A stretch of 64,000 bases of DNA, taken from sequence record PQ511148.1. The stretch is one strand, 5' to 3'. Origin of the DNA: Escherichia phage NHEP10. Under the pieces are notes generated by a model that saw only the letters and a program-made list of their open reading frames with translations, was not told the DNA's origin and did not search any database. A program made the translations under genes and the position numbers. Shown here piece by piece: positions 54,347 through 57,669 of this stretch (its first letter is position 1; the number at the start of each line of letters is the position of its first letter).

Positions 54347-54651
54347 TATAATGTTCTCTCAAATTTATGGAAGCATTTACGGCATTTCAATTTCAAGTTA
54401 TCAGTGGTCCAGTTAACCAGTTGGACTTGGATAGTTCCACATTCAGGGCATGGATGTTTTGCTGCCGATTTGGCAGCATTTTCACGTCGTTCAACCATTT
54501 TCATGATTTCGTTCCATGCCGGAGGAACGAACTCTTCTTCACCGTGGATTTTATCTCGCTGAACAAATTCAATCTTTGAACTATCGTCAATAAACTTAAC
54601 CAAGCTGTGATTAGTGCTCATATCAATATCCTCTAAAAGACGTAGTTTCAT
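54346..54651 (-). CDS. zinc-ribbon protein (101 aa)
   Basis: CPECG...CRKC; TAATG overlap with upstream stop. Confidence 0.5.
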   Translation of the reverse strand: MKLRLLEDIDMSTNHSLVKFIDDSSKIEFVQRDKIHGEEEFVPPAWNEIMKMVERRENAAKSAAKHPCPECGTIQVQLVNWTTDNLKLKCRKCFHKFERTL

Positions 54652-55601
54652 TATAAAACCTCAATGGCATTTCGTAAACCGTCCGCTTTCGCATTCAGAG
54701 CTTTTAACGATTTAGTTTGTTCTGCAATCTGGGCTTCGACTTCTTTCAGACGAGATTTGAGATATTCACGTTCTTCAGCCATGATATCAACCTTTTCTGC
54801 TTTAGGTTCTTTAATAAGCTTAGGTTTATACGTATTAGGGTTCTTCAGCTTAATTCGGGTACGAGAACTGTATAACATTGAACCGTTATCTTCAGATTCG
54901 TCGAAAGTTTCAACAACATCCATAGTCTCTAACAATGTAATAAGTTTATAAGACAATGAACGAACGGTTTTGTTATGCTTATTAATTTCTTCAGCTTTCA
55001 TGGTACCGAGATTACGTGAGTAGTAATAGGGAACCTGGATATCAATTGATAATGATGCGTCACCATTACCGGTTGGTTTGAATACTGCAGTAACCCAATC
55101 TTTAACATGAACTTTATTTGTACGACCATCACCGCCCGTGAATAATTTACGAGAATGTTTAAAAAGCATATTCACTTGGTTATTGAATTCACAAGCAAAT
55201 TTATCAGCAAATTTAGTTTCAGGAATGGTAGATAACCAATCAGCCAAATGAGTCTTTTTAACATCATTAACAATAGTGAATTCAACCAAATCGGTTTTAG
55301 ATGTCACAGATTTAATAAAGCTCGGCTTCATAAAGTTTTTGATGTTATCACGAGCTACAGTAGAAGATAATAAACGAGAACGTTTGAACCATTGAAGCAG
55401 TGTCCCTAATGAATGAGAATACGCATTCTGAGTATCTTTACAGATATGATTTTCTTGGCCTGTGTATGTACCAAAATCGCGAAGAATACCACTTACTACA
55501 TCTCGGTGTGGAACATCAAATCCTAGTGCACCAACAGCGCGCTGGGCATGAACGTTAGCGATAAGTCCGGCAAAGTATTCAATGTAATGTGAACGTGTCA
55601 T
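54651..55601 (-). CDS. hypothetical protein (316 aa) with C-terminal coiled coil
   Basis: SD GAGAGGA; own palindrome-containing promoter 55630..55659. Confidence 0.55.
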   Translation of the reverse strand: MTRSHYIEYFAGLIANVHAQRAVGALGFDVPHRDVVSGILRDFGTYTGQENHICKDTQNAYSHSLGTLLQWFKRSRLLSSTVARDNIKNFMKPSFIKSVTSKTDLVEFTIVNDVKKTHLADWLSTIPETKFADKFACEFNNQVNMLFKHSRKLFTGGDGRTNKVHVKDWVTAVFKPTGNGDASLSIDIQVPYYYSRNLGTMKAEEINKHNKTVRSLSYKLITLLETMDVVETFDESEDNGSMLYSSRTRIKLKNPNTYKPKLIKEPKAEKVDIMAEEREYLKSRLKEVEAQIAEQTKSLKALNAKADGLRNAIEVL

Positions 55602-55629
55602 AATATTTTCCTCTCGTTAAGATAGATTC

Positions 55630-55659
55630 ATTATACTCCAACCATCCTTGGTTGTAAAC
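55630..55659 (-). promoter_or_regulatory. early promoter-like element with CCAACCATCCTTGGTTG spacer palindrome
   Basis: Plus strand ATTATACTCCAACCATCCTTGGTTGTAAAC; upstream of the 316-aa gene. Confidence 0.5.
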
Positions 55660-55663
55660 CGTT

Positions 55664-56623
55664 TTATGATTTTAATGCATTCATTGCGTTAAAAAGTTTA
55701 GAGTACTGCAACTGGAGCTTGGTAACTACTTGTTGAGCATCACGAAGCTTAGCTTGTGCTTTGTCAAGTTCAACGGATAGTTGGTCTACAGTAGCCTTGA
55801 TTTGGTTGTAATGATAATCTTCGGCAGGAAGAAGGTCATTAGAAACATTTAGTTTTACTGCCGACAGTTTGCACACATTTGGCAAACCTTTAAACATACC
55901 GGGTTGTACCGGAGAATATGCGCTTAGAACCTCTGCATTACCGACAGGTGTTGCTGTGATATTGCCTTCGAACGTTGCATTTTCCTTTTTAAGATTTTGA
56001 TAGTATTCAGAGTCTTTGTGCCACCATGGCGCAGGAACCTTTTTACCAATAGATACACGTGCCTGAATAGCGATATGGCCCTTATTCTTGATAGGGTTGA
56101 TAATATTAAGCTCACGAGAATAAATTGCTTTAATCTGGTGAATATTATCACCTAACACTTCCAACGCTTGGTGGAATACACGAGCAACGTTATCATTCTT
56201 AGGTTTATACGTAAGAGTGAACTCGTTCTCACTGATAACCATGATTTCTAACTTATCGTAAGTATATTTCAAATGTTTCATGTTAATTGCTTGAGGACGA
56301 ATACGAGAAGCAATGGCCATCAGATTGTTAAGGTTATTCCGGAACTGCTTAGCGAAATATTGTCCTTCACCACCAATACAAAAATTACGAAGTTTCTGTT
56401 TGGCTAATAAACGGCTGAACTCACCATTTTTAATGAACTCTTTAACAGGTGTGTTAGTAACGCATTCAAATTGAGTAAACTTACGAGAAGTAATCCCATA
56501 ATATGAACAGGCTTCCTCAATCTCTTCAGGAGTCTTTACAGGCATACGGATAGGATTAGGTTCTGGAGTATATGCGTTCGAGGTAAATTCTTTGATAAGT
56601 TCTCTACGTGTAATAAAAGCCAT
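55664..56623 (-). CDS. hypothetical protein (319 aa) with C-terminal coiled coil
   Basis: Trimmed to ATG 56623 (MAFITRR) with SD GAGGA; the track N-terminus MMYNQGWLEYN is promoter sequence. Confidence 0.55.
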   Translation of the reverse strand: MAFITRRELIKEFTSNAYTPEPNPIRMPVKTPEEIEEACSYYGITSRKFTQFECVTNTPVKEFIKNGEFSRLLAKQKLRNFCIGGEGQYFAKQFRNNLNNLMAIASRIRPQAINMKHLKYTYDKLEIMVISENEFTLTYKPKNDNVARVFHQALEVLGDNIHQIKAIYSRELNIINPIKNKGHIAIQARVSIGKKVPAPWWHKDSEYYQNLKKENATFEGNITATPVGNAEVLSAYSPVQPGMFKGLPNVCKLSAVKLNVSNDLLPAEDYHYNQIKATVDQLSVELDKAQAKLRDAQQVVTKLQLQYSKLFNAMNALKS

Positions 56624-56650
56624 TTTTATATTCCTCATGTTGAAAAATTT

Positions 56651-56680
56651 ATTATACTCCAACCATCCTTGGTTGTACAT
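56651..56680 (-). promoter_or_regulatory. early promoter-like element with CCAACCATCCTTGGTTG spacer palindrome
   Basis: Plus strand ATTATACTCCAACCATCCTTGGTTGTACAT; upstream of the 319-aa gene. Confidence 0.5.
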
Positions 56681-57669
56681 CATTCCTTAAGAAGTTTTAC
56701 TACCTGAATAAGATTAGCTCGTTCTGTTTTATTTTTACTGTTTAAGCCTGCTAATCGTGAGATTTCATCGTCAGTCTGTTGAATAGTTACATTAAGTTCG
56801 TTAATCAAAGCTTCAAAGTATTTGATTTGCTCAGCATGTTTTGATTCAAATTTCTGAACCGGAATAACGTTCAGTTCATCAATAAGGTCTTTAAGAGAAT
56901 CTTCTTGGTTGATATCATATTCAACTTCTTTTATTTCTTCAACGAACTCGTCTTTATATCTAACGTCTTTTAGTCCTGGTGTTGGTCCCGAAATCTCTTC
57001 TTTAAGAGTACAAACATATCCAATACGGTATCCAATGCCGTCTCGCTTGATATCAACTTCGTCAATAAATCCACAATGTTTAAGACCAGAGCCGATTAGG
57101 TCAAAATATCCTTGACGTCGTCCTTCAAACGTTACACGAACTACTAAGACAGTTTTACCTGCAACCTTTTGAAGCTCACATTTATAAAAGTCTGTTGAAC
57201 CTGAATAACGTGGATGAGTTTTAAAGTTCATCTGACGATCTAGGCCCATTTGTAAGCGTGCTGATACGGCCATAAAACGTGTTTGGTTCTCGTTAAGATG
57301 AGCAACAATCCATTTCAAAGGCATTTTACACTGTTCACGACCGAACAAATCAGTACGTCCTAGATTACGCAGGATGTTGTTAGAGTTAATCATCGACAGA
57401 ACGTTAAGTTTATTCAGCGCGCTGAAGATTCCATCGGCCATTGATTTTCCGTAACCTTTACACGCTTTAATAAGCGCTCGCGGTAGATTAGTATAGATTT
57501 CAGACGGCATATGAAAATCAAATTTACTAGTCAGTAATTGATGAACTTGGATAGCAATTTGTTCATAATTAAGTGCTCTGCGATCATTATGGTCTTTAAA
57601 CCACACTTTAATCTGTGAAGCACATAAACCGTTAATTTCATGTTTTACCGCATCAGATGTAATGCTCAT
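56680..57669 (-). CDS. hypothetical protein (329 aa) with C-terminal coiled coil
   Basis: ATG start; degenerate copy of the same promoter upstream (about 57690..57720). Confidence 0.55.
   Translation of the reverse strand: MSITSDAVKHEINGLCASQIKVWFKDHNDRRALNYEQIAIQVHQLLTSKFDFHMPSEIYTNLPRALIKACKGYGKSMADGIFSALNKLNVLSMINSNNILRNLGRTDLFGREQCKMPLKWIVAHLNENQTRFMAVSARLQMGLDRQMNFKTHPRYSGSTDFYKCELQKVAGKTVLVVRVTFEGRRQGYFDLIGSGLKHCGFIDEVDIKRDGIGYRIGYVCTLKEEISGPTPGLKDVRYKDEFVEEIKEVEYDINQEDSLKDLIDELNVIPVQKFESKHAEQIKYFEALINELNVTIQQTDDEISRLAGLNSKNKTERANLIQVVKLLKE

Follow-up and report, generated by a model that had tools for sequence, protein, structure and literature searches.

Three consecutive minus-strand open reading frames (ORFs), designated A, B and C, in a 64,000-nucleotide stretch of Escherichia phage NHEP10 (sequence record PQ511148.1; the whole stretch is referred to as the window) correspond to the RB69-type forms of the T-even genes nrdC.3, nrdC.5 and nrdC.6. 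The reading preferred here, held with evenly balanced confidence, is that they are paralogues arranged as a cassette array of diversified anti-defence genes. The separate families were already catalogued, and one of them, nrdC.5, has a phenotype in T4; the new elements are the proposal that these families form one superfamily and the anatomy of a hairpin embedded in the promoters. The original prediction described three consecutive genes of 316 to 329 amino acids (aa) from a family it did not recognise, and these coordinates and lengths hold, with B taken as 319 aa from the ATG at 56623. The genes nevertheless belong to known T-even families, namely nrdC.3, nrdC.5 and nrdC.6 (PF26897, PF23882/DUF7235 and PF26899).

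Family assignment of genes A, B and C

Gene A (54651-55601, minus strand; 316 aa) is identified by sequence as the orthologue of T4 nrdC.3. Its product is 57% identical to T4 NrdC.3 (E 2e-121) and matches phrog_1435 over the full length (E 1.3e-101), while the gene occupies the syntenic position beside nrdC.2 and carries a GAGAGGA ribosome-binding site ahead of its ATG.

The ORF of gene B runs on to 56683 (339 aa). The start is placed instead at the ATG at 56623, which is preceded by a GAGGAA ribosome-binding site and located past the promoter, giving a gene at 55664-56623 on the minus strand with a 319-aa product. The protein is classified as a distant, Mosigvirus-type member of the NrdC.5 family (Pfam DUF7235). 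It matches PF23882 over profile positions 1-307 of 307 with 394.6 bits against a cut-off of 30, T4 NrdC.5 reaching 420.6 bits over the full length in the same scan. B also falls in phrog_2351, and BLAST gives 25% identity to T4 NrdC.5 (E 1e-10) and no match to the positionally equivalent T4 NrdC.4. The likeness between B and T4 NrdC.5 (PF23882; phrog_2351) extends to the full-length model match, size, C-terminal coiled coil and place in the gene order. They differ in an insertion of about 30 residues, which follows the L..FC motif and is missing from B, in the variable linker peculiar to B, and in the early promoter that B has for itself, T4 nrdC.5 lying directly after nrdC.6.

Gene C (56680-57669, minus strand; 329 aa) is assigned, from phrog, BLAST and AlphaFold2 (AF2) evidence, as the full-length, Mosigvirus-type form of nrdC.6 (PF26899, phrog_2257). 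The match to phrog_2257 has an E-value of 1.8e-124. Identity to T4 NrdC.6 is 38% over the N-terminal 127 aa (E 3e-19), and identity to the 295-296 aa NrdC.6 proteins of T4T and other Tequatroviruses is about 39% over the full length. Alignment with these T4T-type proteins includes the coiled coil and reveals a linker insertion of about 30 residues in C. Within the family, 39 columns are invariant across 38 sequences, and PF26899 is carried by all 108 of the 108 hits. The T4 reference NrdC.6 (275 aa), in contrast, is truncated at the C-terminus and lacks the coiled coil of the 295-296 aa T4T-type proteins (P0104). In the T4 reference (L002:10067-10894), DNA for the conserved tail (KIVDLLKS-stop) is still present just ahead of nrdC.5, and a frameshift or a sequence difference in the record is suggested for the short form. 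The ATK47 record contains an unsupported 'StbAB binding site' feature within the homologue of gene C.

The window phage is an RB69-like Mosigvirus, and its annotated relative ATK47 is likewise a Mosigvirus (Tevenvirinae). Over 4 kb, the region shares 97% identity with Shigella phage Shf125875 and with many RB69-like coliphages, and only 7 loci were returned by the related-locus search. The neighbouring genes, comprising nrdD, 49, pin, nrdC, nrdC.x genes, rI and tk, are all T4 genes in T4 order on the minus strand. With nrdC at 53677-53958 and a tk fragment at 63514-63900, the predicted placement of A, B and C between nrdC and tk is correct. In Tequatroviruses the gene row reads nrdC.6, nrdC.5, nrdC.4, nrdC.3; in the window and other Mosigviruses it reads C, B, A, without nrdC.4. 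Copy number differs by genus, with four in T4 and three in the window. Precomputed family accessions in a large protein collection give PF26897 for the nrdC.4 type and PF26899 for the nrdC.6 type. Many GenBank records apply the name 'thioredoxin' to all nrdC.x proteins (H18, H25, H36-H38 and others; P0007, P0012, P0017), a name derived from the locus label only, and Pfam contains no thioredoxin similarity for A, B or C.

Counter-defence as the proposed function

The functional proposal is anchored in T4 nrdC.5. A T4 clone with compensatory deletions lost plating on ECOR17 because of Dsr1, and plasmid expression of a single T4 early gene, nrdC.5, was enough to restore plating on MG1655 cells equipped with the dsr1 sirtuin defence (Srikant, Guegler, Laub 2022, PMC9391042). 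The neighbourhood is rich in counter-defence functions, including the nearby gene 49.2, which inhibits the OLD defence (PMC13096335), and pin. T4 Ip1-3 provide a precedent for several specific inhibitors of one defence family within one phage (PMC12373910). They resemble the proposed array in being diversified inhibitors, each directed to its own variant of one defence family, and in occupying a recombination-prone locus; they differ in being small, capsid-packaged and injected, in lacking a coiled coil, and in being reported as apparently non-homologous (PMC12373910).

Because of the anti-Dsr1 phenotype of T4 nrdC.5, this neighbourhood and the Ip1-3 precedent, we infer a counter-defence role for A, B and C. 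The three proteins would act as stoichiometric inhibitors that bind host anti-phage defence proteins directly. By analogy with T4 NrdC.5, B would most probably act on Dsr1-type SIR2 NADases, and the targets of A and C would probably be different defence proteins or different alleles. Specificity would come from the variable N-terminal part together with the linker, and the conserved coiled coil would oligomerise the protein.

Several points weigh against this reading. As B is only 25% identical to T4 NrdC.5, its target may differ from Dsr1. No fold or domain hinting at a biochemical activity was found among solved structures, known folds or family libraries, and literature searches returned no paper on the function of nrdC.3, nrdC.4 or nrdC.6. 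For NrdC.5 itself, no paper after PMC9391042 in the library searched offers a mechanism for the anti-Dsr1 effect.

Related paralogues might instead serve early host takeover or housekeeping through the coiled coil, the anti-Dsr1 effect of NrdC.5 being indirect or peculiar to that protein. This would accord with a phenotype in only one family member, with the lack of detected similarity to known anti-defence or defence proteins, and with their retention by T-even phages in the hundreds, the A family alone occurring in 653 records, which makes these genes more conserved than many anti-defence genes. It is nonetheless judged unlikely, given a hyperplastic, non-essential region that also harbours pin, the anti-OLD gene 49.2 and nrdC.5, the variation in copy number from four in T4 to three in the window, and the extreme between-genus divergence (25-39% identity) set against close core neighbours, a pattern typical of arms-race genes.

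If the preferred reading of a paralogous anti-defence array is true, the T4 anti-Dsr1 gene would be one of a family of three or four per genome, and nrdC.3, nrdC.4, nrdC.6 and the RB69-type versions would become candidate inhibitors of other defence systems. The family would then illustrate the expansion of T-even counter-defence by tandem duplication in self-contained promoter cassettes. In practical terms, the result helps to rank experiments and to correct the 'thioredoxin' label widely misapplied to these proteins; current views would not be overturned, and the findings fall mostly inside known, poorly studied families.

Common ancestry, architecture and distribution

Common ancestry is likely for A and B, where confidence is high, and only suggestive for C, where the evidence still leans clearly towards relatedness. 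The proposed history is a tandem duplication of an ancestral gene followed by divergence almost past sequence recognition. T4 NrdC.3 and NrdC.4 are both full-length matches to phrog_1435, and their profiles align in hhalign with a probability of 99% (E 8e-18). The nrdC.3/4 profile aligns with the nrdC.5 profile at E 5.6e-4 to 8e-4 over 97-135 colinear columns, with the direct link between A and B put at E 5.6e-4 to 6.5e-4, and reaches E 1.4e-7 when the 315-aa protein P0257 is included. P0257, which comes from a representative library, combines by hmmsearch an nrdC.4-like N-terminal part of 243 residues with an nrdC.5-like C-terminal part of 70 residues, and alone it matches the nrdC.3, nrdC.4 and nrdC.5 profiles with 88, 94 and 93% probability, respectively.

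For gene C, the NrdC.6 profile matches the merged nrdC.3+4+5 profile with a local E-value of 7.4e-5 (120 N-domain columns) and a global E-value of 7e-8, the controls yielding 0.05-0.6 for reversed profiles and 0.046-0.96 for ten column shuffles. A hidden Markov model built without NrdC.6 ranks C as the top non-member among the 85 window ORFs (E 1.6e-4), and nrdC.4-like proteins, for example P0062, match the last 127 residues of C by BLAST (E 2e-5). The earlier suggestion of diversified paralogues is thus partly supported, by profile for A and B and more weakly for C through the merged profile, BLAST and Foldseek. The pairwise profile alignment proposed as its check gives the same division, connecting the A and B families and leaving C weak when the families are taken one by one.

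The multiple alignment of the four families contains colinear motifs, comprising an N-terminal M.TR..I..F, LS...A..(I/L)(R/K)N(F/Y), F..N...(L/M)...(A/S)(S/A)R(L/I) (T4 NrdC.4 FRLFKKQILKSASKL versus T4 NrdC.5 FRRQLKQILSTASRL), P.E..H..I ahead of the tail, and a C-terminal L.NA..LK. A word-indexed protein search with the superfamily alignment recovered only 2 of the 4 families, although the profile scores all four highly locally; members of the others were recovered by exact look-up.

A shared origin is called into question by several results. P0257 may be a recombinant chimera of paralogues rather than a true intermediate, which would weaken the link between A and B. NrdC.6 matches the other families weakly profile by profile, with E-values of 0.006-0.044 and hhalign probabilities of 1-2%. 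The AF2 model of B, built from a 31-sequence alignment, has a pLDDT of 45 and is confident only in the helix at 266-318 (pLDDT 77-89), and cross-family Foldseek TM-scores are low, at 0.24-0.44.

In the extreme case A, B and C would be unrelated orphans, with nothing in common beyond a coiled-coil tail, owed to convergence or composition, and a promoter cassette that recombination had spread. Pairwise BLASTP among the three detects no similarity, PHROGs and Pfam hold them as three separate families, and the low family-by-family hhalign probabilities for C point the same way. The weak matches, however, are colinear in every case and involve the same motifs of the N-domain, not the coiled coil, whose removal leaves them in place (E 0.0008-0.006); they also exceed the reversed and shuffled controls by 2-3 orders of magnitude. 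The lengths and the predicted secondary-structure order are also the same, a cross-family Foldseek match exists, and nrdC.3 and nrdC.4 are demonstrably paralogous, all of which renders the orphan explanation improbable.

The architecture proposed as common to these prereplicative proteins, early or middle and about 300-340 aa long, consists of a helical N-domain with colinear motifs, a small beta-alpha-beta module, a variable disordered linker, and a C-terminal coiled coil of about 50 residues ending in L.NA..LK. The only usable model is that of C (38 sequences, pLDDT 71.7), which displays a helical N-domain at 1-141, a beta-beta-alpha-beta-beta module at 162-222 and a disordered linker at 224-275. 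Its tail comprises helices at 279-305 and 311-328 (pLDDT 74-85), forming a helix-turn-helix rather than one straight helix. The low-confidence model of B presents the same order of secondary structure as C.

The predicted C-terminal heptad-rich segment, a putative coiled coil, is seen in each gene, by the heptad scan in all three and by AF2 helices in B and C. On a crude heptad score it covers residues 267-316 of A, 267-319 of B and 279-308 of C. The heptad-rich helix of A (aa 267-316) is encoded at 54654-54803 on the minus strand; it gives weak coiled-coil Pfam matches, such as DivIC at 282-314, and aligns with the C-terminal helices of the other families, sharing the terminal motif L.NA..L(K). 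The corresponding coding regions, both on the minus strand, are 55667-55828 for the helix of B (aa 266-319; AF2 helix and heptad scan) and 56683-56835 for the helices of C (aa 279-329; AF2 helices), the latter with positions invariant across the NrdC.6 family.

Foldseek comparison of the C model with BFVD ranks the NrdC.6 family first. Next come T4-like phage proteins of about 300-335 aa that are uncharacterised, the hosts being Enterobacter, Pectobacterium, Acinetobacter and Klebsiella (E 3e-7 to 4e-4). A further match, to a 308-aa protein of Yersinia phage fPS-65 (E 3.5e-3, prob 0.93, TM 0.24), is probably its NrdC.3, because of its length and because a 308-aa NrdC.3 homologue was found in that genome. 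Profile searches of solved structures returned no match, and NCBIfam and PADLOC returned only sub-threshold coiled-coil noise. When 1.84 billion cluster representatives were searched exhaustively with the superfamily profile (HMMER), 12 proteins emerged, all of T-even type. By tblastn, 653 phage records contain the A family and 133 the B type, the hosts being almost exclusively Escherichia, Shigella, Yersinia, Salmonella, Citrobacter and Serratia. Members of the proposed superfamily thus come only from T-even-like phages, and their fold is not recognisable.

In Acinetobacter phage Acj9, the protein Acj9p122 (L010:36835-37812; 325 aa) has a coiled-coil tail and is encoded in a syntenic position, with gene 49 on one side and nrdC.10 on the other; the structural match E5EPQ6 in BFVD is probably this protein. 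Acj9p122 shows no sequence similarity to any of the family profiles, and for this reason the wider distribution is indicated by Foldseek only. Acj9 also encodes a nicotinamide phosphoribosyltransferase and a phosphoribosyl pyrophosphate (PRPP) synthetase (L010:4690-7344), which would represent a different counter to NAD-depleting defences.

A broader version of the proposal can be offered only tentatively. It holds that nrdC.3, nrdC.4, nrdC.5 and nrdC.6 constitute one fast-evolving, coiled-coil-anchored superfamily of defence inhibitors that spans the T4-like phages and has structural relatives as far afield as phages of Acinetobacter, Klebsiella and Pectobacterium. Every paralogue would then be adapted to a host immune protein of its own, Dsr1 being the first such target known, the genes would be reshuffled as cassettes, and the spacer hairpin would have a function of its own beyond that of published promoter-stem-loop cassettes.

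Assembly of A, B and C into one machine, as subunits of a hetero-oligomer held together by their similar C-terminal coiled coils, would suit the similar C-terminal helix and terminal L.NA..LK in all members and the constant adjacency of the genes, and is nevertheless the least probable explanation, since plasmid-borne T4 nrdC.5 alone is enough for the Dsr1 phenotype (though the extent of the T4 deletion is unstated in the paper text, PMC9391042), copy number varies by genus, the T4 reference NrdC.6 lacks the tail, and the different promoter classes imply different timing.

Promoter-embedded palindromes and cassette shuffling

Each gene would constitute an independent expression cassette, with its own promoter and a hairpin palindrome directly past the previous stop codon. 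The early-type promoter of A (55630-55658, minus strand) consists of a -35 TTTACA at 55658-55653, a 17-nt spacer and a -10 TATAAT at 55635-55630. With 11 of 12 consensus matches it is the best site of the region, and it begins 5 nt past the stop codon of B. The early-type promoter of B (56651-56679, minus strand) has a -35 TGTACA at 56679-56674, a 17-nt spacer and a -10 TATAAT at 56656-56651; it matches 10 of 12 consensus positions and starts directly after the TGA stop of C. These two are among the three best sigma-70-like sites on the coding strand of the stretch. The spacer of A contains the 16-nt palindrome CAACCAAGGATGGTTG (55639-55654, minus strand), with a 6-bp stem and an AGGA loop. 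Identical copies are located at 56660-56675, in the spacer of B, and at 13390-13405, and in the spacers of both A and B the palindrome is followed by GAG. A compensated variant, CATCCAAGGATGGATG, occurs at 12832-12847.

Upstream of C, no -35 hexamer is present at the right spacing and no sigma-70 -35/-10 site was called. The element at 57705-57733 (minus strand) instead comprises the MotA box AAACGCTTTA at 57733-57724, a 13-nt spacer and a -10 TATAAT at 57710-57705, with a degenerate palindrome, ACCCAAGGACGGGT, at 57724-57711. The box matches 9 of 10 positions of the MotA consensus, reported as (a/t)(a/t)(a/t)TGCTTtA located 12+/-1 bp from a good -10 (Hinton review, PMC2988021). The element aligns as a whole with the T4 PnrdC.7 cassette ahead of nrdC.7, PnrdC.7 being an experimentally mapped middle promoter with its start at 53325. 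The promoter of C is accordingly classed, from the box and this alignment, as a T4-type MotA-box middle promoter homologous to T4 PnrdC.7. Because A and B have sigma-70 early promoters and C a MotA-box middle promoter, the three are not copies of one. The predicted repetition of one palindrome promoter therefore stands for A and B, which share identical CAACCAAGGATGGTTG, and fails for C, whose copy is degenerate; the co-regulation expected from it is not supported in that form, given the division into early and middle types.

The core CCAAGGATGG, allowing at most one mismatch, occurs 7 times in the window against 1.84 expected, a count reached in 0 of 100 shuffles. All four exact copies are on the minus strand, as is the copy with one mismatch ahead of C, and each sits just past a stop codon and shortly before a TATAAT. 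The stems covary across six variants while the AGGA loop remains constant. In addition to CAACCA/TGGTTG in the window, the stems are CATCCA/TGGATG at window position 12847, AGCCA/TGGCT ahead of T4 nrdC.3, CCACA/TGTGG ahead of T4 nrdC.4, ATACCA/TGGTAT ahead of T4 nrdC.7, and ACCC(A)/(C)GGGT ahead of C. The T4 nrdC.3 and nrdC.4 promoters (phrog_1435; PF26897) thus each carry a palindrome of the xxCCAAGGATGGxx type like those of the window, differing in stem sequence and in that the window has no nrdC.4 copy. Predicted RNA hairpin stability ranges from -4.2 to -6.4 kcal/mol across the variants and is -5.3 kcal/mol for CAACCAAGGATGGTTG.

In IMG/VR, CCAAGGATGG is found 0-8 nt before TATAAT in many viral contigs (L011-L130) with varied complementary flanks. 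Among the matches listed for CCAAGGATGG-N0-8-TATAAT, 32 of 121 contain at least 2 further complementary flanking pairs, where about 8 are expected, the hits not being independent of each other. In the zero-gap class, ATGG supplies the TGn extended -10 element. An intrinsic-terminator role for the palindrome was rejected as stated, because a U-tract is absent and the stem is weak; no terminator-like site was called. An operator for a symmetric dimer is less likely, as the conserved AGGA centre is asymmetric while the outer stem covaries.

A separate TTTACG-17-TATAAT site (10 of 12 matches) lies inside the 3' end of gene A, at 54650-54678 on the minus strand, its -10 coinciding with the overlapping stop/start TATAATG of A and the next gene (54346-54651). 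This site may be due to chance or may be the promoter of a nearly leaderless transcript.

Such units resemble the promoter-early and promoter-middle stem-loop (PeSL and PmSL) cassettes of T4-type phages (Arbiol et al. 2010, PMC2839356; Comeau et al. 2014, PMC4122927). Both recur between genes as units that combine a stop codon, a stem-loop, a strong promoter and a ribosome-binding site; both border accessory genes in hyperplastic regions and are found where genes have been replaced between relatives. A and B possess the strong sigma-70-like early promoter, ribosome-binding site and ATG of a PeSL, C conforms to the PmSL variant through its MotA-box promoter, and a link to gene insertion, deletion or replacement among related phages is present. 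Promoter-stem-loop cassettes of this kind would allow genes to be gained, lost and swapped by recombination. Telling against a simple equation with published PeSLs, which are drawn with the stem-loop upstream of the promoter, the stem-loops of the window sit inside it, in the spacer that leads from the -35 (or MotA box) to the -10; no U-tract follows the palindromes, so that a terminator role is unproven. The window stem is also short (5-6 bp, about -5 kcal/mol), with the conserved AGGA loop.

Gene content provides a clear example of a cassette-mediated swap. The window and T4 can be aligned from the end of nrdC.8 across the MotA box, palindrome and -10, and homology ceases about 10-25 nt beyond the -10. 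The gene that follows the PnrdC.7-type cassette is nrdC.7 in T4 and gene C in the window. PeSL crossover points have been reported between the -10 and the ATG (PMC2839356), and the break past the -10 is read from the alignment as the signature of recombination inside the cassette. In addition, nrdC.4 is present in T4 and absent from the window, and nrdC.7 is relocated.

The counterpart of the T4 PnrdC.7 cassette (L002:11298-11377) stays behind the nrdC.8 homologue at window 57705-57733, where it now drives C, and the nrdC.7 homologue, encoding a 137-aa membrane protein, is located at 53933-54346, downstream of an nrdC.2-like gene. A GC-rich hairpin, AAGGGCCTTCGGGCCCTT, which is terminator-like on both strands, lies at 60091-60117 just downstream of the nrdC.11 homologue, and T4 has a comparable hairpin, GGGAGCCTTCGGGCTCCC, with a T-run after it, upstream of nrdC.10. 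Another minus-strand array, made up of three paralogues that have diverged from one another, lies downstream of dexA at 11908-12327, 12337-12792 and 12855-13349. The genes of this array (11908-13409) are dexA.1/dexA.2-like, with the common C-terminal motif ...DQW(V/I)EDG..L.N(I/V)V..GDF.VV. The same palindrome promoter precedes two of the three, at 13409-13381 and 12851-12823, the second with the compensated stem CATCCA/TGGATG.

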